A stretch of 64,000 nt of DNA from Nitrosopumilaceae archaeon (GCA_965209085.1 OZ242376.1:384001-448000); one strand, 5' to 3'; shown: positions 24,798 through 36,864, numbered from the stretch's first letter. Program-made: numbers and translations. Notes: generated by a model from the letters alone, not told the origin.

Positions 24798-26534
24798 TTA
24801 TTCTTCAACGTTTGTACCCGATGCCTTTAATCTTTCTTGTATCTGTGTCATTATCCGTCTTGCCTTTTCCCCGTCGTCATTTCTGTCCACATTACCGTCC
24901 ATTATGCTGTCTATTTCAAAACCTTTGTCAACTAGAATGTCTGCCACATGGTTATCCAAAGTTCCATCCCCTACCAAATAATATGCAAATACGGTGTTTT
25001 TTTGCCCCATGCGGTGCAGTCTGTCTTCTGCCTGTCTGTGTATTGCCGGACTCCAGTCAAGTTCGGCAAAAACCACATATCTTGCACGACTCAGATTTAT
25101 TCCAACGTTTCCTGCCCGCAACCCTGCTATCATTAGGTTTGATTTTCCATCTTGAAAATTGTCTATGCTGTTTTGTCTGTCTTTGTCGGTCTGACCTCCT
25201 ATAATGGATACTGGGGAAAATTCTGCTAGCTGTTCATGAAGCAGTTTGTGTATGGCCCTGTGATGGCAAAATACCACCACGCTTTCTTCAATCTCCATTA
25301 TTCCCTTTACAAAATTGATCACATGTGGCAGTTTTGCAATGCCGGCTGCCTGTCTTTCACTTTGTATTGCGCGCTGATATGATGCTGATTTGTCAAACGA
25401 AGTCCTTGCATGTTTTTTATCCTCAAGCATTTTTTTCCAAATTTTCTTCAGTTCGCCCACGTAATATTGTGAATCTGAATCTATGACTTCGCGGTGGCGC
25501 ACTTTACCTTTTAATTCTCGTAGAACATCAGCTTTTTTGCGGCGGAGCATTATGTGTTCTTGAAGCTGTTTTCTTAGTGATTCTCTTTTGTTTTCAAGCA
25601 CTATGGCTTTTCCTTTTTCATTCAAATAACAAAAATACTCACAAAACTCGCGATAATTTCCAAGCATACCTGGTTTTAGTATGTCTATAATCGGCCAGAT
25701 TTCCGAACCACGATTGTATATCGGCGTACCTGACAAACCTATGCGATGCTCTATCGTTTCCAGCTTTGAAAGTTTTAACACCGCAGAATATTTTCTAGTG
25801 GATTTTGATCTAAGATGTTGCACTTCATCGCATATGAGAGAACGAGCTCCAATTTTTGATAAATCCAAAAGACGGCGTTCCAACAATTCATAATTTATAA
25901 TATAAAAATCAAATTCTCCAAGATCCGCGGATTTGCCGCGACGAATCATTGTGGTTGTTGGGATTGAACTTTTTATCACACGTCCGTTACGACTTTTTTT
26001 GAACATGAATTTTCCAATTTCCCGTTCCCAATTTTTCAAAGTAACTAGAGGTGCAACAACTATTGCAGGAAACGGTTGCTTTTCCGTCGCCAGATATGCC
26101 AGAGTCTGCACGGTTTTACCCAAGCCCATCTCATCTGCAAGAAGTGCATTGCCAGAAGATTTTAGCAAAAAATCAAGTCCTTCTTTTTGAAAATCCAGCA
26201 ATTTTCCCTTGAATTGGGATCCTGGTTTTGTGCGTTTGAGGGTGTATTTTTGTATCACCGGTGCCTTCTTTTGGCGTGGTTTGACACTCTTTCTCCTCCA
26301 TACGGATTTTGAAAGTATCTCCAACGGATGTCTATCTGCGATCCATTGTAGCTGTTGGATGTTCTGTATATTGTCTTGTACTATTACCTCGTTGGCTCCA
26401 TCACCATACCATGATTGTGGGATCATTTTTGAGACCATATTGATCGCTTCCAATCCTGTGATTTTCCAACTCCATGCTTGTGAATACCTGTCCATCACGT
26501 ATTCCATAGTGCCAAAATCATGTTGCTGTGCCAT
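24798..26534 (-). CDS. SNF2-family helicase
   Basis: LADEMGLGKT, DEVQ, LSGTP and QAEDRLHRMGQ motifs. Confidence 0.95.
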   Translation of the reverse strand: MAQQHDFGTMEYVMDRYSQAWSWKITGLEAINMVSKMIPQSWYGDGANEVIVQDNIQNIQQLQWIADRHPLEILSKSVWRRKSVKPRQKKAPVIQKYTLKRTKPGSQFKGKLLDFQKEGLDFLLKSSGNALLADEMGLGKTVQTLAYLATEKQPFPAIVVAPLVTLKNWEREIGKFMFKKSRNGRVIKSSIPTTTMIRRGKSADLGEFDFYIINYELLERRLLDLSKIGARSLICDEVQHLRSKSTRKYSAVLKLSKLETIEHRIGLSGTPIYNRGSEIWPIIDILKPGMLGNYREFCEYFCYLNEKGKAIVLENKRESLRKQLQEHIMLRRKKADVLRELKGKVRHREVIDSDSQYYVGELKKIWKKMLEDKKHARTSFDKSASYQRAIQSERQAAGIAKLPHVINFVKGIMEIEESVVVFCHHRAIHKLLHEQLAEFSPVSIIGGQTDKDRQNSIDNFQDGKSNLMIAGLRAGNVGINLSRARYVVFAELDWSPAIHRQAEDRLHRMGQKNTVFAYYLVGDGTLDNHVADILVDKGFEIDSIMDGNVDRNDDGEKARRIMTQIQERLKASGTNVEE

Positions 26535-26606
26535 GAATTGCACACTTTTGTTTTTTCTGCTTATGAATCTTGATTTTTTTAGTATATTTGGATAATATTG
26601 GCTCGA

Positions 26607-26756
26607 TCAGCCATGAGGGGCGTCTACTGTACCCTGTTCTGCATGAGGCTTTGTATTCTCATCATGGCAGTCGCAGTGGCACAGGTATTCCTTGTGATCG
26701 CTATGACAATCGATACATTCGTAGTGTTTGTGGTTCTCACATGCTGCGCATATCAA
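26607..26756 (-). CDS. Cys/His-rich metallothionein-like microprotein (49 aa, TTG start)
   Basis: Hand translation MICAACENHKHYECIDCHSDHKEYLCHCDCHDENTKPHAEQGTVDAPHG*: 7 Cys, 8 His. AGGAG lies 12 nt upstream. Confidence 0.6.
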   Translation of the reverse strand: MICAACENHKHYECIDCHSDHKEYLCHCDCHDENTKPHAEQGTVDAPHG

Positions 26757-26890
26757 TAAATGCCCAAACTCCTGAAATTGCCCAATCCTGACATGAGTAT
26801 ACTGTGTGTATGGGGGGATAAAAAATTATTGCCCACTGGAGTAAAATATTAGATATAGCCCCATAAGAGCATGATTCATCATTATTTTTT

Positions 26891-28081
26891 ATGCGTACAT
26901 GGTACATTCTGGCACCAGTCATTGCGTGCCTTGCAATGGCGCCTATGGTACAGGCAGATGCAATATTTTGGGATCTACTCATACACCCTACAATCACCAA
27001 TGATCCGGTACCTTTGGGCGGACATCCTGAGCTAAATGGGATTATAGAAGATCATGGTGGTAATGCCGTGGTTGGAGCTAGCATAAGCGTCAGAACTTTG
27101 GGACATACTGCTTGGCTGGAGACAGATGAATATGGTAGATTTGCGTATTTGTTTAATGAAACTACGGCAACTCCGGGACTTCATTCTATACAAATACATG
27201 CAACCGCGGACGGTCTTGGCGGAGAAAAAACTGGTTTTGCCGATGTCACATATAGAACAGAAGGCGGTCCTGGACTTTCTGCAGAGGCAAAAATATTGGC
27301 CACCGAAGACGCAAGGAAATATCTTAATGCCAATGAAGATGATTTTACAAATGATCTTGTGGGATCTTTATTGTATGAATATTATAATGATTTGTATCAA
27401 ACACATCTTAAACAAATTGTAAGAGAACAGGAATTAGAAGAGAGAAACAATCAAATTTTAAAAAACCGTGCAATTGCATTAAATATCACAAATAATCTAA
27501 TAAACGATAATGACCAGAGAACTGGACATATCTCAAAATATTCCTATGAGAAATTAATATCCAATACGGATCCTACCATACGTAATGACGTGATACGCCA
27601 GATCAATTATACAATAACTGCATTCCACGAAGCGCAAGATGCCATAAAAATAATACAACAATCTGGAAAATCTTACAAGGATGCTGTAAACATATATTCT
27701 GAAAACAATCCTCTCTCACGTGAAAACATGGATATGATTCTATCTGGATATTCATACGATGATCTAGAACGTATGAACATGGAAGGCGTGGAGAATAATA
27801 TGTCTGCCGTTGATTCAAATGCAACTATTTTGGATGTACCAGTAAACGATCTGAACAGCACCATGACAAATCAGACTGTACCAAAAGACGTGATAATTCC
27901 TGATCCCACGTACAATTTACACATATCTGTCACGGCACTAAATTGGGATCTTCCTCCCTCTGGAACTAGCATAAATCTTACCGGTTCTGCGATTGGGCTT
28001 AGCTCATCTGGTAAAATAATGGTTGGAATAAATGGAACTTTGGTAGAATTACAACTACATGAACTAATTATATCAGAATAA
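26891..28081 (+). CDS. Secreted hypothetical protein with an Ig-like N-terminal region
   Basis: Signal-peptide-like start (MRTWYILAPVIACLAMAPMVQA), a beta-rich segment, then a helical Asn-rich region. Confidence 0.75.
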   Translation: MRTWYILAPVIACLAMAPMVQADAIFWDLLIHPTITNDPVPLGGHPELNGIIEDHGGNAVVGASISVRTLGHTAWLETDEYGRFAYLFNETTATPGLHSIQIHATADGLGGEKTGFADVTYRTEGGPGLSAEAKILATEDARKYLNANEDDFTNDLVGSLLYEYYNDLYQTHLKQIVREQELEERNNQILKNRAIALNITNNLINDNDQRTGHISKYSYEKLISNTDPTIRNDVIRQINYTITAFHEAQDAIKIIQQSGKSYKDAVNIYSENNPLSRENMDMILSGYSYDDLERMNMEGVENNMSAVDSNATILDVPVNDLNSTMTNQTVPKDVIIPDPTYNLHISVTALNWDLPPSGTSINLTGSAIGLSSSGKIMVGINGTLVELQLHELIISE

Positions 28082-28328
28082 TCTTCAATTTTGATTTCCA
28101 ATATACAATACTGATTTAATAAATATACTTTTTTAATTCATAATTTTTAATAAAAATAGACATAATTTTTATTAACATTGTATTTCACAATAGACTCTTT
28201 CAAATCAGTCATTCTCATTCATAGAAATTGTGAATTTGGTCAGTCATGTATATGATCTAATCTTATGATTAGACGTACATTTGGATTATTTCAATACCTT
28301 TTTATTGAAATTTTTTAACTATAAACTC

Positions 28329-30572
28329 ATGAATCGTACGATGCAACTTATGGCATTATTCACAATATTGCCACTTTTGACTGTATCAATTTCAATGTCT
28401 GCAAATAACGCATACGGTGCAACCAACATCTGTGGCGTACAATTGTGTTCTGATTACCCTGGTGGCAAATCCAAGTTTGAGGAAGATAAAATGCTTGGTT
28501 ATGGATATTCTGTAAAATCTAATTCAGTTATTGATCCAACTATGATGATGAAAACCCATGATGAAAAATCCAAATATGCTATGAAAATTGCTGATTGCAT
28601 GGAAAATATGATGATGGATGAAATGATGATGAAGATGATGATGGACAGGATGATGACGGATGAAATGATGATGATGGACGAGATGATGATGGACGAGATG
28701 ATGATGGACGAGATGATGATGGACGAGATGATGATGGACGAGATGATGATGGACGAGATGATGATGGACGAGATGATGATGGACGAGATGATGATGGACG
28801 AGATGATGATGGACGAGATGATGATGGACGAGATGATGATGGACGAGATGATGATGGACGAGATGATGATGGACGAAATGATGATGGACGAAATGATGAT
28901 GGACGAAATGATGATGGACGAAATGATGATGGACGAAATGATGATGATGATGAAGAAAATGATGACGGACGAAATGATGACGGATGAAATGATGATGATG
29001 AAGAAAATGATGACGGACGAGATGATGACGGATGAAATGATGATGATGAAGAAAATGATGACGGACGAGATGATGACGGATGAAATGATGATGATGAAGA
29101 AAATGATGACGGATGAAATGATGATGATGATGAAGAAAATGATGACGGACAAGATGATGACGGACAAGATGATGACGGACGATATGATGACGGATGAAAT
29201 GATGATGATGATGAAGAAAATGATGACGGACGATATGATGACGGATGAAATGATGATGATGATGAAGAAAATGATGACGGACGATATGATGACGGATGAA
29301 ATGATGATGATGATGAAGAAAATGATGACGGACGATATGATGACGGATGAAATGATGATGATGATGAAGAAAATGATGACGGACGATATGATGACGGATG
29401 AAATGATGATGATGAAGAAGATGATGACGGATGAAATGATGATGATGATGAAGAAAATGATGACGGACGAAATGATGATGGACCACGAATTTGATTGTGA
29501 AACTTACAAAATGAAGTATGCTGATAAAATGCATAAAAAAGACAGTATGCATGGTGATAAAATGGAAGAAATGCGAGGTTCCAATGATGATGAAATGAAA
29601 GGCATGGATCACAAGAAAAAAGTTTATCTCTCTAGAGCAAATGTAGCCGCTGAAATTCCTCTACATGAAGGATATTACAATGGCGATAACGTTTACTATA
29701 TTATAACTGACGCAAGCGAACAGAGCCACGTAGATACTATCTCTACAAACCAAGATTGGAATGTTGCATATGCACCCTTACTGACCAACGCTCCAGAATC
29801 TGCACTTTCAAAAACATACATGTTCGTAAACGGTGTTGATGGGAATGGAGTACACGGATACCAATCTGAAGTATTTACCACTATTCCAGGTCAAGATAAC
29901 TATAGTCCTTTAAAATCTCATGTACACGTTGTTTGGAATGACGGTGTTTCTCCTACACTATTAACATCAGAAGATGATATCGAAACTGCTGCAGCACAAA
30001 ACAAAGTAACACTCATTCCACTAGATGTGGTAATCAACATGCCATTCATAATGTGGCCAAACGGACAATTACAGATCAATGAAAATACTATAACCGATCA
30101 TCTTGTATATGGTGGGGGTCAAATTACAGATATTGATCTTGACGACATGACCGTTACGTTCATTGCACATCGCGGATGGGGTCCTGATGGCAGCACAATA
30201 TACTATATCGTGACAGATGCCATACCATCTGGTCCTGCTGAAGCAATGGGAGTCCCACATACACCAGCTACAGCATCTTTGCTTGCAAACCCTGCCGCAG
30301 TCGATTTATACCAGTTCAAAAACGGGTTAACAGGTACAGGTCCACTAGGTTTCCAACCTGGAATTGGAGCTGCAGGTTTTGGAGATGATAATTATTCACC
30401 AATGTGGCGTATATTCCTTATTGAATGGAATGATGCTGATCATGCATCATTATTGATGACCAAAGGGGATATTGATGCTATGAATGAATCTGGAAAAATC
30501 ACCATTGAACTAGCAATGCCTATGGACTTGGCGCATATTGTAAACTGCCCGTTTATAGATCCATTCCAATAA
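28329..30572 (+). CDS. Secreted protein with an extreme Met-rich repeat tract and two C-terminal repeated globular domains (DUF7482-like, tentative)
   Basis: Signal peptide, CGVQLC motif, about 295-aa Met/Asp/Glu/Lys/Thr tract, then two copies of YYI.TDA...F.NG..G.G..G.Q...YSP...N.PF. Confidence 0.85.
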   Translation: MNRTMQLMALFTILPLLTVSISMSANNAYGATNICGVQLCSDYPGGKSKFEEDKMLGYGYSVKSNSVIDPTMMMKTHDEKSKYAMKIADCMENMMMDEMMMKMMMDRMMTDEMMMMDEMMMDEMMMDEMMMDEMMMDEMMMDEMMMDEMMMDEMMMDEMMMDEMMMDEMMMDEMMMDEMMMDEMMMDEMMMDEMMMDEMMMDEMMMMMKKMMTDEMMTDEMMMMKKMMTDEMMTDEMMMMKKMMTDEMMTDEMMMMKKMMTDEMMMMMKKMMTDKMMTDKMMTDDMMTDEMMMMMKKMMTDDMMTDEMMMMMKKMMTDDMMTDEMMMMMKKMMTDDMMTDEMMMMMKKMMTDDMMTDEMMMMKKMMTDEMMMMMKKMMTDEMMMDHEFDCETYKMKYADKMHKKDSMHGDKMEEMRGSNDDEMKGMDHKKKVYLSRANVAAEIPLHEGYYNGDNVYYIITDASEQSHVDTISTNQDWNVAYAPLLTNAPESALSKTYMFVNGVDGNGVHGYQSEVFTTIPGQDNYSPLKSHVHVVWNDGVSPTLLTSEDDIETAAAQNKVTLIPLDVVINMPFIMWPNGQLQINENTITDHLVYGGGQITDIDLDDMTVTFIAHRGWGPDGSTIYYIVTDAIPSGPAEAMGVPHTPATASLLANPAAVDLYQFKNGLTGTGPLGFQPGIGAAGFGDDNYSPMWRIFLIEWNDADHASLLMTKGDIDAMNESGKITIELAMPMDLAHIVNCPFIDPFQ
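28608..29483 (+). repeat. Coding tandem repeat: 18 x 15-bp ATGATGATGGACGAR, then mixed MMMM(M)KK / MMTD(E/D/K) units
   Basis: 28668-28937 is 13 units ending GAG followed by 5 ending GAA; after that, higher-order units of up to 51 bp. Confidence 0.95.
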
Positions 30573-30603
30573 CCAACATATCATATTATTTATGACCGTC
30601 TAG

Positions 30604-31551
30604 ATGCGTATATTTATGATGCAGAATAAAACATTGTTTGTTGCAATTGCAGTCGTATCGTTACCAATAATATTCGCATTTGTGGCATATTCTGAAACGT
30701 TCAATCTAAGTTGGAATCAAGGTCGTGGGGGATTTTTATTTGCACTTGCATTCATAATAGCCGAGCTAATAGGACTACGGATCGGAATAGCCAAAAATCG
30801 TATTTTAATGGCAATTCCTTTGGCTTTGATTGTCATAACATACATGATCTTACTAGAAAATGGATTACGTGAACAAATTGAATCGTTAGCTAGCAATTTT
30901 GGAATTCAACTTTTACTTTCTTGGGTGTGGATGTGGGACTTTATAATCATGGCTGCGTTTACAACCGCAACATTGATCCTCTTTTTTGGCACCAAGTGGA
31001 TAAGAATAGCACCGGCAGGACCAATTTTTCTTTATGGAAGTGCAATAATATTGTCTTTAGATGCATTTTTCCCATATGATTCACTTGGCCCGTTGCAATA
31101 TTTTGTACCATATTTGGTAAATCTTAACGTTTGGCTTGTGAATTTGTTTGATCTTGGTGTAGCAAATGCATCCGGAAACATGATGTTTCTAAAGGGTGAT
31201 TTTGGTCCATTTGCATTGCAAGTATTCTGGCCTTCTGCAGGAGTACACAGCATAATTATCTACTCGCTTGTCATGATGGCATTTTTGCTTAAAATGCGTA
31301 TAATACCTAGACGAAAACTTGCTTGGTTTGCAATTGGGATCTTTGGAACAATAGTGGTTAATGTAATCCGGATCTTTTCACTCTCTTGGTATGCATTAAA
31401 AGTTACTACCGATACGGCACTTTGGGAAGAATTTCATTCCGTAGCTGGAGAAATCATGTTCCTACCGTGGCTATTCGCGTTTCTTATGATCGTCGCTGTG
31501 GTAGAAAATAAAAAATTAAAGCAACTAGACAAACAAAACGATCAAAAATAA
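30604..31551 (+). CDS. artG: Thaumarchaeosortase (exosortase/archaeosortase family)
   Basis: Multi-pass membrane protein with QVFWPSAGVHS, NVIRI and EEFHSVAGE catalytic-region motifs. Confidence 0.88.
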   Translation: MRIFMMQNKTLFVAIAVVSLPIIFAFVAYSETFNLSWNQGRGGFLFALAFIIAELIGLRIGIAKNRILMAIPLALIVITYMILLENGLREQIESLASNFGIQLLLSWVWMWDFIIMAAFTTATLILFFGTKWIRIAPAGPIFLYGSAIILSLDAFFPYDSLGPLQYFVPYLVNLNVWLVNLFDLGVANASGNMMFLKGDFGPFALQVFWPSAGVHSIIIYSLVMMAFLLKMRIIPRRKLAWFAIGIFGTIVVNVIRIFSLSWYALKVTTDTALWEEFHSVAGEIMFLPWLFAFLMIVAVVENKKLKQLDKQNDQK

Positions 31552-32636
31552 TCGTCAATGCTTAATTGACCTGTAACATCTGACAATTCTGAAACCTTTA
31601 CTCCTAGTCTACGAATTGGCTTATTTTGAATTTCCAAGGCTTCATGCAAAAGTTGTTTGGCAATTTTTGAGAGATCCTGCAAAGATGCAGTGGGATGCAA
31701 TAACATTTTGGAATGGGATTTACCTGTCATGTCATTTTGCACAAATTGAACGCCTACTGATCTAAAAAGTTTGTTGTTTTTCATCACAATTTCATGAATC
31801 TGTCTGCACATTCTATACAAATTTAACAAAAGATATGTTTCATCAGAAGAATCTTTAGAAAGAGTGGATATTTTGCTATATTGAACACTTGGTTCTTTCT
31901 TAGTAACTGGCGATAAATCTTCACCTTTTGATGCATTGTAAATATACGTACCAACTTTTCGCCCAAATTCTCTTTGCAGTGCAAATATATCTGCATTACA
32001 GAGCTGACCTATAGTAATAAATCCCATGGATTTGAGTTTCACTTCTGTTTTTCCACCGATGCCTGGTATGTCTCGAATTTTTAATGGTTCGAGAAATGCT
32101 GAAACATTTTCAGGTCGAACAACCGTCAATCCGTCTGGTTTTTTAAAATCAGATGCTATTTTTGATATTAATTTATTTGGAGTTACACCAACGGAACATG
32201 TGAGCTTTGTACCTTCACGTATGGCGTTTTTAATTTGCTGCCCAATATGTGATGCATGATCAAAATTTTCTTTACTTTTTACGGTGACATCTAGATATGC
32301 TTCATCTCTTCCTACATATTCAAAAATATCTGCATGTTTACTCATTATATCCATAGCTTTTTGCGACATGTCTGAATAATAATCAAAATCTGTTGGTAAA
32401 AATACCGATTCAGGAATGGATTCAAGCTTTCTTTTTGCAATTGTTATGGGCATGCCTGCCTTTACACCATAATTTCTTGCCGTATAATTCGCAGTAGCTA
32501 TGGCCCCACTATCTCCCCCTCGATCTGAGAATACACACACAGCTACCGGAACGGTTCGTAGTTGCGGTTTGCGTATTTCTTCACATTGGGCATAAAAATA
32601 ATCAAAATCAGCATGAATTATGACGCGTTTTTTCAT
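31542..32636 (-). CDS. dinB: Y-family DNA polymerase IV (DinB/Dpo4)
   Basis: HADFDYFYAQ, ATANYTAR, DEAYLD and KPDG motifs; C-terminal PIP-like QLSIDDYF. Confidence 0.96.
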   Translation of the reverse strand: MKKRVIIHADFDYFYAQCEEIRKPQLRTVPVAVCVFSDRGGDSGAIATANYTARNYGVKAGMPITIAKRKLESIPESVFLPTDFDYYSDMSQKAMDIMSKHADIFEYVGRDEAYLDVTVKSKENFDHASHIGQQIKNAIREGTKLTCSVGVTPNKLISKIASDFKKPDGLTVVRPENVSAFLEPLKIRDIPGIGGKTEVKLKSMGFITIGQLCNADIFALQREFGRKVGTYIYNASKGEDLSPVTKKEPSVQYSKISTLSKDSSDETYLLLNLYRMCRQIHEIVMKNNKLFRSVGVQFVQNDMTGKSHSKMLLHPTASLQDLSKIAKQLLHEALEIQNKPIRRLGVKVSELSDVTGQLSIDDYF

Positions 32637-32677: not shown

Positions 32678-32929
32678 ATGTCTGCACCAGTAGAACTCAA
32701 AGATGGTGGAATATGTATTAGACCGGAAAAAATGGAAAAAGAAAAATTATACCACTGTATAATGGGTTCAAAAATAATGCTTATATATAAAGACAGCCAA
32801 GATATGTTCAACTGTTACGAATTGGATGACCCTGATCTAGTTAAAACCATTCAAAAATGCACTAATGATGAGCAGATAGAGGCATCACTACGTGAATTTG
32901 CCAACATTTCTGACCTAAATACTAAATAA
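32678..32929 (+). CDS. Hypothetical protein (83 aa)
   Basis: Natural-looking ORF divergent from dinB and co-directional with the Alba fusion. Confidence 0.7.
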   Translation: MSAPVELKDGGICIRPEKMEKEKLYHCIMGSKIMLIYKDSQDMFNCYELDDPDLVKTIQKCTNDEQIEASLREFANISDLNTK

Positions 32930-32955
32930 TAGGTATATTGATGATTAATCATAAC

Positions 32956-34497
32956 ATGTCAGACAAAGCATATACGGATGCAGAAGATATCTTACAAGAA
33001 ATTCAGGACAAAAATAAAGCCAAAATGAATCCTAATTCTGACGATTCGTCTAAAAATGATCAATTATCACAAACATCCCTGGGAGGCTCATGTGGTTGCT
33101 CCCACGAAGAACCTGAACCAACGTCCAAAACAAAAAGCAAAGGCTCATGTGGTTGCTCCAACGAAGAACCATCCTCCGGTCATGAACATTCATCAGCATC
33201 ATTAATCCAACCTGAACCAACGTCCAAAACAAAAAGCAAAGGCTCATGTGGTTGCTCCAACGAAGAACCATCCTCTGGTCATGAACATTCATCAGCATCA
33301 TTAATCCAACCTGAACCAACGTCCAAAACAAAAAGCAAAGGCTCATGTGGTTGCTCCAACAAAGAACCATCCTCCGGTCATGAACATTCATCAGCATCAT
33401 TAATCCAACCTGAACCAACGTCCAAAACAAAAAGCAAAGGCTCATGTGGTTGCTCCAACAAAGAACCATCCTCCGGTCATGAACATTCATCAGCATCATT
33501 AATCCAACCTGAACATTCATCAGCATCATTAATCCAACCTGAACCAACGTCCAAAACAAAAAGCAAAGGCTCATGTGGTTGCTCCAACAAAGAACCATCC
33601 TCCGGTCATGAACATTCATCAGCATCATTAATCCAACCTGAACATTCATCAGCATCATTAATCCAACCTGAACATTCATCAGCATCATTAATCCAACCTG
33701 AACCAACGTCCAAAACAAAAAGCAAAGGCTCATGTGGTTGCTCCAACAAAGAACCATCCTCCGGTCATGAACATTCATCAGCATCATTAATCCAACCTGA
33801 ACATTCATCAGCATCATTAATCCAACCTGAACATTCATCAGCATCATTAATCCAACCTGAACCAACGTCCAAAACAAAAAGCAAAGGCTCATGTGGTTGC
33901 TCCAACAAAGAACCATCCTCCGGTCATGAACATTCATCAGCATCATTAATCCAACCTGAACCAACGTCCAAAACAAAAAGCAAAGGCTCATGTGGTTGCT
34001 CCAACAAAGAACCATCCTCCAGTCATGAACATTCATCAGCATCATTAATCCAACCTGAACCAATGTCCAAAACAAAAAGCAAAGGCTCATGTGGTTGCTC
34101 CAACGAAGGATCCCATGAGGATGTACCACTTTCATTATCAAAACCGGAACAAATGTTGGAAAATAATACTGAACAAAAAACAACCCAAAAAAATTCTGAA
34201 ACTAAATCTGAAAAATCTGTTCTGTCAAGTGAACATGATGTAATATTCATTGGTGATAAACCTCTCATGACTTATGTGACACATACGCTTACACAGCTTG
34301 CGATACGATCCACTGTAACATTAAAGGCACGAGGTAGAAAAATAACACACGCTGCAGATGTTTCACAAATGATTGAAAAACGTATGGGTTCAGTAGGATA
34401 CAAAGTAATGGATGTTCGAATATCGTCTGATTTACTCACACATGAAGGTAAAGAGCGCAAAGTTCCAACAATCGAAATAGATCTGTCAAAAAATTAA
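32956..34497 (+). CDS. Alba-domain protein with a long Cys/His/Ser-rich repeat N-terminal extension
   Basis: C-terminal IFIGDKPLMTYV...VTLKARGRKITHAADVS...KVPTIEIDL is the Alba signature; 10 GSCGCS motifs lie upstream. Confidence 0.88.
   Translation: MSDKAYTDAEDILQEIQDKNKAKMNPNSDDSSKNDQLSQTSLGGSCGCSHEEPEPTSKTKSKGSCGCSNEEPSSGHEHSSASLIQPEPTSKTKSKGSCGCSNEEPSSGHEHSSASLIQPEPTSKTKSKGSCGCSNKEPSSGHEHSSASLIQPEPTSKTKSKGSCGCSNKEPSSGHEHSSASLIQPEHSSASLIQPEPTSKTKSKGSCGCSNKEPSSGHEHSSASLIQPEHSSASLIQPEHSSASLIQPEPTSKTKSKGSCGCSNKEPSSGHEHSSASLIQPEHSSASLIQPEHSSASLIQPEPTSKTKSKGSCGCSNKEPSSGHEHSSASLIQPEPTSKTKSKGSCGCSNKEPSSSHEHSSASLIQPEPMSKTKSKGSCGCSNEGSHEDVPLSLSKPEQMLENNTEQKTTQKNSETKSEKSVLSSEHDVIFIGDKPLMTYVTHTLTQLAIRSTVTLKARGRKITHAADVSQMIEKRMGSVGYKVMDVRISSDLLTHEGKERKVPTIEIDLSKN
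33085..34107 (+). repeat. Nested coding tandem repeat: 99-bp unit containing a variable-copy 30-bp unit
   Basis: Unit is GSCGCS-N(E/K)EPSSGH-(EHSSASLIQP)n-EPTSKTKSK with n = 1,1,1,2,3,3,1,1. Confidence 0.95.
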
Positions 34498-34607: not shown

Positions 34608-35234
34608 TCACGTAAAATATGTCATTGCGTCTGCAACAAACATTATTCCAAAATACACCAATATTATGGACGTTCCAATCATAATCATTTTGTATATCTT
34701 ATTTGTAATAAATTTGGAAGCTTTGCCAGACATACCCCCAACAAACATCATCCATGCATAATCCATCCATATATGTAATGCAAACATGGCTGATATGCCG
34801 ATCAACCCCCATTGATTTGCATCCGTGATTAGCTTTAATCCTATGGTTCCCCACCACAAAATAAACAACGGATTTAAGAAACTGAGTAGCATTCCTGTAA
34901 TTAATGGACTATTCCCAAAAATACGTTCTTTGATGGAATAGCACATAACTGATTTCATCTGTATTGCTACAAAAACAAACAAACCAATGGCACCTACAAT
35001 TGTAATACCTGCCCTAAACCATAATGTTCCGTCAATAACTATGATGCCGAGTCCAAACGCTACAACAATTGGTATTTCAACAATTGTGTGGCCTACTGCC
35101 ATTTTAAATCCAGACTTCATGCCACCTTTTATGCCGTGTGCAATATTGGCTACGAATAATGGTCCTGGAGACATGACGCCAGTAACCGATATTATCATAA
35201 CCATAACGGCAAATATGAAAAAATCTTCGTACAT
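34608..35234 (-). CDS. LysE-family translocator
   Basis: MSPGPLF, GHTIVE and NPLFILWW motifs; about 6 TM segments. Confidence 0.9.
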   Translation of the reverse strand: MYEDFFIFAVMVMIISVTGVMSPGPLFVANIAHGIKGGMKSGFKMAVGHTIVEIPIVVAFGLGIIVIDGTLWFRAGITIVGAIGLFVFVAIQMKSVMCYSIKERIFGNSPLITGMLLSFLNPLFILWWGTIGLKLITDANQWGLIGISAMFALHIWMDYAWMMFVGGMSGKASKFITNKIYKMIMIGTSIILVYFGIMFVADAMTYFT

Positions 35235-35586: not shown

Positions 35587-36864
35587 GTGCCTGATATGAA
35601 CGTAAAATTACACCGAATGATGAGTACTTTTGGACCCGGAATAATGTTTGCTAGCACGGCAATAGGTGTTTCACATCTTGTCCAATCCACTAGGGCCGGA
35701 GCCGAATTTGGATTCGGTTTGGTGGCTATTGTACTTTTAGCCAACGTCTTAAAATATCCGTTTTTTGAATTTAGCTCGCGATATGCAAATGCAACAGGTA
35801 CTAGTCTAATAGACGGATACAAAAAACTTGGCCGTTGGGCACTTGGTCTGTACTTTGCCATAACAATTGCATCGATGTTTTTTGTCACTGCTGCAGTGGG
35901 GCTGGTTACCGCTGGATTTATGGAAAATTTGTTTGGCGTAACAACACTTGGCATATGGGGGATAGCTGTATTATTTGCAGTCTGTAGCATTATACTGATC
36001 ATAGGCCGATATACCGTACTTGACAGTCTCATAAAGATAATCGCCACTGTAATACTGGTTTCCACGGTACTTGCATTCGCTTTGGCCGTATATTCTGGAC
36101 CTGCAGAACATGCAGATGGATTTATGGCACCTGAAATTTGGAGTGGTACAACACTGTTTTTCGTTATAGCTCTTATGGGATGGATGCCGATACCAATTGA
36201 CGTTTCTGCATGGCACGGACTGTGGACTCTGGAACGAATAAGACAGACCAAATTCAAACCGTCTTTAAAAGAAACATTATTTGATTTTAATATTGGATAC
36301 TTAATTGTGGCGTCACTCTCTGTATTGTTTTTGATTCTTGGAACGTATATTTTTTACGGTACTGGAAATGATCTGCCTGCAAGCAGTGGTTTGTTTGCAC
36401 ATAAAGTAGTTCAAATTTACACCGAAACTATAGGCGGATGGTCTGAGCTAATCATATCGATATCTGCATTTAGCGTAATGTTTGGAACCATAATAGCAGT
36501 ATTTGATGGATATACTAGATCAATTACAAGGATAAGTGATCTTTTGATGTCAAAACCCAAACCAATCTCAAAACCTTCGTGGAGAAAATACGTTTCAATC
36601 ATGTCGATTTTAGCTGTCACTTCGTTTGTTGTGCTGATGCAATTTGGCGATAAAATCAAGGAATTGGTGGATTTTGCCACCACCATATCGTTTGTAATAG
36701 CTCCAGTTGTGGCTTATTTTAACATCAAACTTGTTTCTGCAAAATATGTGGGCACCGATGCAGTACCTCCCGCGTGGTTGCGGGCATTAAGCTATGCCGG
36801 ATTGATATTTTTATCTGGATTTGCAGTTGTTTTCATAATAGTATACATCCCAACGATCATTTAG
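35587..36864 (+). CDS. NRAMP-like divalent metal cation transporter
   Basis: GPGIMFASTAIGVSHLVQSTRAGA and LMGWMP motifs; about 11 TM segments. Confidence 0.85.
   Translation: MPDMNVKLHRMMSTFGPGIMFASTAIGVSHLVQSTRAGAEFGFGLVAIVLLANVLKYPFFEFSSRYANATGTSLIDGYKKLGRWALGLYFAITIASMFFVTAAVGLVTAGFMENLFGVTTLGIWGIAVLFAVCSIILIIGRYTVLDSLIKIIATVILVSTVLAFALAVYSGPAEHADGFMAPEIWSGTTLFFVIALMGWMPIPIDVSAWHGLWTLERIRQTKFKPSLKETLFDFNIGYLIVASLSVLFLILGTYIFYGTGNDLPASSGLFAHKVVQIYTETIGGWSELIISISAFSVMFGTIIAVFDGYTRSITRISDLLMSKPKPISKPSWRKYVSIMSILAVTSFVVLMQFGDKIKELVDFATTISFVIAPVVAYFNIKLVSAKYVGTDAVPPAWLRALSYAGLIFLSGFAVVFIIVYIPTII

Follow-up and report, generated by a model that had tools for sequence, protein, structure and literature searches.

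We analysed a 64,000-nucleotide (nt) stretch of the genome of a Nitrosopumilaceae archaeon (GCA_965209085.1 OZ242376.1:384001-448000; hereafter the window), which carries at 32956-34497, on its plus strand, a gene for an unusual member of the Alba family. The predicted protein joins a C-terminal Alba domain to a long N-terminal tail containing ten GSCGCS motifs. A preliminary description of the same DNA, made from its sequence alone, had claimed an Alba domain fused to ten GSCGCS/His repeats in a disordered-looking tail, and this account of the gene holds: the Pfam Alba family (PF01918) matches, ten GSCGCS motifs and 20 Cys are present, and the whole protein has 27 His. The features of the locus, in window coordinates, are as follows; structural models were made with AlphaFold2 (AF2), and model confidence is given as the predicted local distance difference test score (pLDDT).

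31542-32636, minus strand: dinB, encoding a Y-family DNA polymerase IV (Pfam IMS, IMS_C and IMS_HHH, E 1e-40; NCBIfam PRK02406)
32678-32929, plus strand: orf83, encoding a conserved orphan protein of 83 amino acids (aa) (homologues and AF2 model)
32956-34497, plus strand: extended Alba paralogue, 513 aa plus stop (open frame, Pfam and PDB sequence matches)
32956-33021, plus strand: N-terminal motif, aa 1-22, an acidic DAEDIL-type amphipathic helix modelled at aa 9-22 (orthologue alignment and AF2)
33091-34108, plus strand: Cys/His repeat region with ten GSCGCS, in 99-nt tandem units with nested 30-nt sub-repeats
34109-34230, plus strand: non-repetitive Ser/Thr/Lys/Glu-rich junction from the repeats to the Alba domain (translation; pLDDT < 50)
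34231-34491, plus strand: Alba domain, aa 426-512 (Pfam PF01918, solved structures and AF2)
34608-35234, minus strand: LysE-type translocator gene, a conserved downstream neighbour (Pfam LysE, E 1e-23; synteny)

The Alba frame ends with a stop codon at 34495-34497. Read from the ATG at 32956 it gives the 513-aa protein, and read from a TTG at 32938 (32938..34497, plus strand) it gives 519 aa; the start at 32956 is backed by orthologues that begin at the homologous M/L-S-D position, and a further in-frame ATG at 32941 may also be the start. An antisense frame of 377 aa (33050-34183, minus strand) crosses the repeat array, and its equivalent in the sister species (G001, the only other species of the genus) has 348 aa. 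It seems to be an artefact that mirrors repeats free of stops, and the pattern of substitutions favours the plus frame.

In the assembled sequence, all ten CGC motifs lie within GSCGCS and contain every one of the 20 Cys of the protein. The sites are 19-53 residues apart along a tail (aa 40-400) composed of Ser 27%, Glu 10%, Lys 9%, Pro 9%, Gly 8%, His 6.4% and Cys 5.5%, with a net charge of -4. The array spans 33110-34108 according to Tandem Repeats Finder, which detects periods of 99, 30, 129 and 159 nt, each divisible by 3, in copies that are 98-100% identical. Among the 8991 open frames of at least 60 aa in this 1.69-Mb genome (G000), that of the window Alba gene is the sole one with three or more CGC. 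Between residues 23 and 429, almost the whole chain is modelled with pLDDT below 50 and without secondary structure, in keeping with the disorder previously proposed. A PDB sequence search with the protein gave matches only in the Alba part and none in the tail, and an ESM Atlas search with the tail gave no usable match. Two further hits, one to Pfam MiAMP1 below its cut-off and one in PHROG at E 0.0033, were reported with no matching stretch and were rejected as chance. Outside the window, the second-highest count of Cys-x-Cys (CxC) in the genome belongs to a 118-aa frame near position 713965 of contig C1 (minus strand), with seven CxC and 14% Cys, which could be a genuinely Cys-rich small protein.

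The C-terminal domain matches PF01918 at aa 429-491, over profile positions 2-66 of 66 (37.1 bits against a 25-bit cut-off, E 2.7e-9), and residues 426-512 align end to end with 11 distinct Alba sequences of solved structure in PDB. The best of these is 1nfh_A (E 6.5e-13, residues 3-89 of an 89-residue chain), and the KARG-type core is kept. The AF2 model of the domain, in which pLDDT is only 50-77 on an alignment of six rows, has the order strand-helix-strand-helix-strand-strand of the Alba fold (beta-alpha-beta-alpha-beta-beta), with short strands at about aa 431-436, helix 437-447, strand 453-457, helix 466-480 and strands 482-496 and 499-512. On these matches the product is an Alba protein and a putative nucleic-acid-binding one. 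Its scores fall below the NCBIfam equivalog cut-offs for canonical AlbA (60.7 against 88.25 bits and 63.1 against 90 bits, for TIGR00285 and PRK04015 respectively), and it is therefore a divergent paralogue rather than canonical AlbA. The first Lys of the G-K-K-P loop, which is present in the solved Albas and in short syntenic forms and which we take to be the acetylation site of Sulfolobus Alba, is replaced by Asp in this genus and by Thr, Val, Ile, Leu, Met or Asn in 123/123 extended orthologues examined. A long branch (0.6 substitutions per site) also separates the Alba domain of this genus, with its Asp in the G-x-K-P loop, from those of the other extended orthologues. Judging by these sequences, change in the domain seems to have accompanied change in the tail.

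Comparison of orthologous sequences indicates that one Alba paralogue is, throughout the family that includes Nitrosopumilus, normally built of an N-terminal motif, a low-complexity linker and an Alba domain. When 40 relatives were searched, a best match was obtained in every genome (41/41 with the window's own). We read stop-to-stop frames around 19 best matches from other genomes, for which identity in the Alba part is 52-85%. Fourteen of the 19 are complete and read M/L-S-x-x-K-K-x-x-D-A-E-[DE]-I-[LF]-x-E-F, followed by a low-complexity linker and Alba; the remaining five are cut by contig ends, with repeat linkers still visible. D8, A9 and E15 of the N-terminal motif are invariant in an alignment of 16 orthologues, and I12 is kept in at least 90%. 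No further copy of this motif was found elsewhere in the genome, and thus there is no sign of a shared docking tag. The linkers are mostly Pro/Glu-rich tandem repeats, and two orthologues (G005 and G020) keep the motif with almost no linker and no repeats.

The same layout recurs on a larger scale. A profile search for long forms (173 aa or longer) returned at least 407 protein clusters at E <= 1e-10, and the 123 clusters examined have a median linker of 84 aa, a mean Pro plus Glu content of 42% and no more than four His; the N-terminal motif expression is matched by 94 of them. A tree of 47 Alba domains gathers the extended forms into one group (support 93/91) and leaves outside it two standalone paralogues and three short syntenic forms (G006, G009 and G011). 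Within the group, the window protein and that of its sister species form a pair on a stem of length 0.6, with G003 as sister (90/93); the linker of G003 has no Cys. The window gene shares with the extended paralogue the N-terminal motif, the linker, the Alba domain and the order dinB/orf83/Alba/lysE, and we regard its architecture and orthology as very secure. Within the protein, on the same comparison, the composition of the linker is the sole unusual part.

The architecture had been taken as unrecognised, and here the preliminary description needs correction: N-terminal extension of Alba is the family-wide norm, and such proteins from Nitrosopumilus and its relatives already stand in databases, named just 'DNA-binding protein' or 'Alba'. 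Our search of the literature, which did not extend to supplementary files that could hold proteomic detections, found no description of extended Alba in ammonia-oxidising archaea, and the part of one genome paper available to us merely lists two Alba genes (PMC3043068). In another family of the order, the closest Alba paralogue (G027, locus L038) has its tail at the C terminus, with TASPAP-type repeats and a Lys-rich end, and no match to orf83 lies near it.

Arrays of SCGCS are found, among the sequences compared, only in this genus, where six proteins carry them: the window's own, that of the sister species and those of four metagenome clusters (P0001-P0004). The sister protein is 479 aa long with 13 SCGCS motifs and an Alba domain 91% identical to the window's; the four metagenome proteins have 7-8 motifs each and Alba domains 98-99% identical to it. 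In all six, the array sits between the conserved N-terminal motif and the Alba domain. Every CGC copy in these proteins (52/52) is SCGCS, and x-His follows it in 43 of the 52, the nine exceptions, all Asn, being confined to the window protein. When the six consensus units are compared, 17 of 33 positions are invariant, including CGCS, one His, an SLI-x-PE patch and the Gly-Ser before the next CGC. Between the window's species and its sister, the GS-CGCS core shows four synonymous differences and no non-synonymous ones, with proportions of differing synonymous (pS) and non-synonymous (pN) sites of 0.86 and 0, respectively. Over the whole 33-aa consensus unit, pS is 0.54, against 0.53 in the Alba domain, and pN/pS is 0.43, against 0.05 in the Alba domain. 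The synonymous-only changes in the core, together with a pS that matches that of the Alba domain, argue that the tail is read in the plus frame and has been vertically inherited. On these comparisons the SCGCS core is under purifying selection, and we consider it quite probable that the Cys/His core is functional.

The motif is rare elsewhere. Of 123 other extended orthologues examined, none has CxC in its linker. A second genus (g13) has a single SCGC-x5-6-C motif with His-rich flanks in four of its five species, though their linkers diverge, and in the fifth there is no Cys. Searched as a degenerate DNA pattern, the motif gave 13 forward-strand matches in the window's genome and 13 in that of its sister, against at most five per strand in the other 399 of the 401 family genomes covered (six of them unpublished); the pattern has a background of 0-5 per genome, and only the contrast in counts is usable. 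Other parts of the tail are less constant. The basic SKTKSK patches, which had been listed among its features, are specific to this species: the corresponding positions are Q or H in relatives, and the net charge of the tail ranges from -4 in the window protein to -59 in its sister, so these patches are not a conserved feature.

The gene directly upstream appears to belong to the same system, and neither it, its natural fusions to Alba nor the dinB synteny figured in the preliminary description. The conserved block is dinB (minus), orf83 (plus), Alba (plus) and lysE (minus). In the window, dinB and orf83 are divergent with 41 nt between their start codons, and 26 nt separate the stop of orf83 from the Alba ATG. 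The dinB product scores 273 bits against the 256-bit cut-off of the NCBIfam DNA polymerase IV model PRK02406. It adjoins the orf83/Alba pair in 12/20 loci and in 6/12 further loci. The orf83 gene itself lies directly upstream of Alba in 13 of the 20 loci; of the other seven, five are at contig ends, one was at the flank limit and was resolved later, and one (G007) has no match in 836 nt upstream. It is also present in 7 of the 12 further loci, including two genomes of other families of the order, where Alba is short.

In-frame fusions that read orf83, N-terminal motif, linker and Alba in one polypeptide occur in four of seven retrieved representatives (P0009, P0013, P0024 and P0029, of 323, 286, 296 and 256 aa, respectively), and each of the five species of genus g13 has orf83 fused to Alba. 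No other evidence points as strongly as these natural fusions to joint action of orf83 and the Alba paralogue, and we consider it likely that orf83 is a functional partner of this paralogue. A three-chain complex prediction with the Alba domain, the N-terminal motif and orf83 lends weak support, with a score of 0.37 against 0.00 for the best control (runs of 0.43, 0.00 and 0.37, run agreement 0%, partner pLDDT at least 58); at 0.60 or under, this mark is reached by 7/80 solved complexes and by both of the two mismatched pairs, out of 110, that passed. A metagenome protein of 142 aa (P0044) is made up of a short GKKP-type Alba and the first half of an orf83 homologue, and could be a frameshifted gene call or another form of fusion.

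The orf83 protein is an orphan. None of 20 aligned homologues has a Pfam family, no NCBIfam or PHROG match was obtained, and only 64 representatives occur among 1.84 billion proteins; in the ESM Atlas it finds only unnamed Nitrososphaerota clusters (0.77-0.78). Its AF2 model is confident (pLDDT 86.8), with five strands and two helices, and no PDB fold resembles it at E <= 0.001, the best match having E 0.24. A likeness to Sac7d-derived binders, at ranks 6-7 of that comparison, is weak and not significant. A metal site in orf83 was considered and rejected, as only one Cys is invariant and a second is kept in at least 90% of sequences. In the sister species, about 600 nt lie between orf83 and the Alba gene (locus L040, 2062-2661), with no open reading frame of 33 aa or more; this gap could be an insertion remnant or an RNA gene.

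We suggest, tentatively, that the window protein is best explained as a tethered Alba paralogue whose linker would have been turned into a multivalent thiolate/imidazole array that binds metal or, possibly, senses redox state. The paralogue would consist of a short conserved acidic N-terminal helix, a fast-evolving disordered tether and the Alba domain, and would work with orf83, which in some lineages forms the N-terminal portion of the same chain. By comparison with orthologues, the Pro/Glu-rich tether that is usual elsewhere has been rebuilt in this genus from tandem units, in which the elements apparently constrained are Ser-Cys-Gly-Cys-Ser, usually then His, a second His and an SLIQPE-type patch. 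The ten Cys-x-Cys/His sites could bind soft metal ions, most likely Cu(I) or Zn(II), in the manner of metallothionein-type CxC sites. Metal loading or oxidation might then compact or cross-link the tether and so affect the contacts of the Alba domain and the N-terminal motif with nucleic acid and with partners. The conservation of the Cys/His core fits a ligand role, and metal binding as the function of that core is a possibility that we favour with some hesitation. The identity of the metal and its binding are inferred from general coordination chemistry and from the analogy with other CxC proteins, and the effect on Alba is likewise an inference. A bolder form of the idea, in which the paralogue doubles as a tethered metallothionein-like metal buffer or as a metal/redox switch and, with orf83, controls assemblies of Alba and nucleic acid, seems to us rather doubtful. 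The metal or redox response and the tail-driven condensation put forward in the preliminary description are likewise conjectural.

Several observations weigh against a metal-binding tether. No metal-binding family matches the tail (for the protein as a whole, Pfam returned only Alba and the sub-threshold MiAMP1), and its Cys content, despite ten CxC motifs, is far below that of typical metallothioneins. Across the family, the linker varies from about 20 to about 400 aa and hugely in composition, and it lacks repeats in some members, from which it follows that the linker as such tolerates almost anything. The near-identity of the array copies means that their invariance within the protein is in part due to recent amplification. 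Moreover, Asn stands in place of the His after SCGCS in nine of the ten window copies, a weaker ligand set in this species. As for the partnership with orf83, the locus that lacks it and the long gap in the sister species indicate that tight co-transcription is not universal.

An alternative is that the tail serves only as a spacer, long, hydrophilic and disordered, and that its CGC motifs spread by chance with a unit multiplied by replication slippage, with no ligand or redox role for the Cys and His. Linker length and composition vary enormously among orthologues, some of which have no linker, the expansion of the array is recent, the number of CGC varies even among near-identical strains (7, 7, 7, 8, 10 and 13 in the six proteins) and the charge of the tail is not conserved. 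A passive spacer, however, would hardly explain why SCGCS persists in every copy while the rest of the unit has diverged, with only synonymous change at so high a pS, why Cys is otherwise nearly absent from linkers of this family, or why the SCGC motif has been independently kept in most species of g13, and we consider this explanation unlikely. The same conservation of SCGCS would be expected if the motif were a redox switch, in which strained intramolecular Cys-Gly-Cys disulfides, or interchain ones, reversibly cross-link Alba on nucleic acid under oxidative stress. Indeed, CxC motifs can form redox-active disulfides and act as mimics of protein disulfide isomerase, and the CXC-motif literature, in the portion available to us, treats Ccs1 disulfides. 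The His beside most of the Cys pairs and the invariant second His are nevertheless better explained as additional metal ligands, and the neighbourhood has no thioredoxin-like context; we therefore think a redox switch improbable, and a metal-binding array the better account of the core.

It could also be asked whether the tail exists at all, either because the array is misassembled or because translation begins later and yields an ordinary Alba of about 110 aa. The locus is represented in no RNA run, and the array is bridged by neither reads nor contigs. In four public short-read runs, the assembled contigs break off at 33139 and begin again at 34075, so the copy number of the array is given by the assembly only. 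However, repeat pieces in run X1 have a depth 7-13 times that of the flanks, against 5-8 assembled copies, which argues against an inflated assembly and fits a long array, although X1 may be the source sample itself and its depth ratios are only suggestive. The six independent sequences, from two genomes and four metagenome clusters, all carry in-frame SCGCS arrays between the N-terminal motif and Alba, and substitutions between species follow the third codon positions of the plus frame. On the misassembly raised in the preliminary description, these data support a long in-frame array, with a provisional number of copies. Translation of the tail is likewise favoured, by the conserved motif upstream of the repeats, by a frame that is open in every relative and by the synonymous nature of all differences in the core. 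The in-frame Met at aa 400 (near 34153), which had been named as a possible start, is missing in the sister species. An artefact is thus highly improbable. In another run (X2), one low-depth contig (depth 7 against thousands) has a 1-nt insertion in the repeat unit, at window position 33353, likely to be an error or else a variant of low frequency.

Of the chromatin/RNA-binding proteins of archaea, Alba is among the two found most widely, normally as a bare 10-kDa domain. The 87 C-terminal residues of the window protein align over the whole of solved archaeal Alba chains (Sso10b/Alba1 and AF1956), and the protein differs from these in its N-terminal extension of about 425 aa and in the replaced loop Lys. 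Long-form ALBA proteins of plants, trypanosomes and Plasmodium likewise have an Alba domain with a long low-complexity tail. However, that tail is C-terminal and Arg/Gly-rich, whereas the tail described here is N-terminal, rich in Ser, Cys, His, Glu and Pro, and ends in its own conserved motif; its translation has no Arg-Gly-Gly (RGG) repeat, and Arg is not among its major residues. In the available part of one report, Arabidopsis ALBA proteins associate with YTHDF partners through a short linear motif in a disordered region of YTHDF (PMC11649824).

Similar in layout is the bacterial single-stranded DNA-binding protein (SSB), which has a binding domain, a variable disordered linker and a conserved acidic tip. 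The window protein likewise has a putative nucleic-acid-binding domain, a hypervariable disordered linker and an acidic amphipathic peptide, and its gene lies beside that of a translesion polymerase. The folds are unrelated and the order is reversed, the tip being N-terminal here. The dinB neighbour hints at a role near DNA damage tolerance, but shared descent alone may account for the synteny.

A series of Cys-x-Cys motifs with His close by is a typical ligand set for soft metals, and in this the tail resembles the Cu(I)/Zn thiolate proteins, among them metallothioneins, the copper chaperone Ccs with its CXC motif and the copper-sensing factor dMTF-1 with its Cys cluster. The last is a DNA-binding protein whose Cys cluster, according to the part of the report that we consulted, senses copper through a Cu(I) cluster (PMC2396432). 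The window sites differ from those of metallothioneins in being widely spaced along a disordered chain of low Cys content that is fused to Alba; no Pfam metallothionein model matched at E <= 0.1, and no characterised archaeal metallothionein was found in the literature searched.

This analysis establishes the structure of the gene, its conservation, the fusions with the partner gene and the selection acting on the core. A whole family of abundant ammonia oxidisers carries an Alba paralogue of its own, in which a docking-type motif is conserved and the disordered tether is hypervariable, and with it an orphan protein as probable partner; nothing on this combination was found in the literature searched. 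What is new is apparently an undescribed but common Alba architecture with, in this genus, a rare and seemingly selected Cys/His tether. This version may be regarded as a natural experiment, in which a spacer has gained a conserved ligand-type motif that offers a handle on the role of the tether.

Ammonia-oxidising archaea are unusually dependent on copper. Were the tail to bind Cu or Zn, metal homeostasis would be linked to nucleoid or RNA biology in these organisms, and copper status would be tied to genome or RNA handling where energy metabolism needs copper. It would also be the first metallothionein-like module described on an archaeal chromatin protein, and the motif, tether and Alba together with orf83 would form a new conserved module beside a translesion polymerase. 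If no metal is bound, the protein would still be a clear case of selection on a short motif within a free-running repeat array.

The surroundings of the block hold several other genes. Upstream, within 24798-31551, are genes for a SNF2-family helicase (24798-26543, minus strand), a 763-aa DUF7482 protein (28281-30572, plus strand) and an exosortase/DUF998-like membrane protein (30604-31551, plus strand), the last with sub-threshold matches only. Downstream, two genes beyond the Alba gene, a gene for an Nramp-like divalent-metal transporter lies at 35587-36864 on the plus strand (Pfam Nramp, E 5.7e-11).

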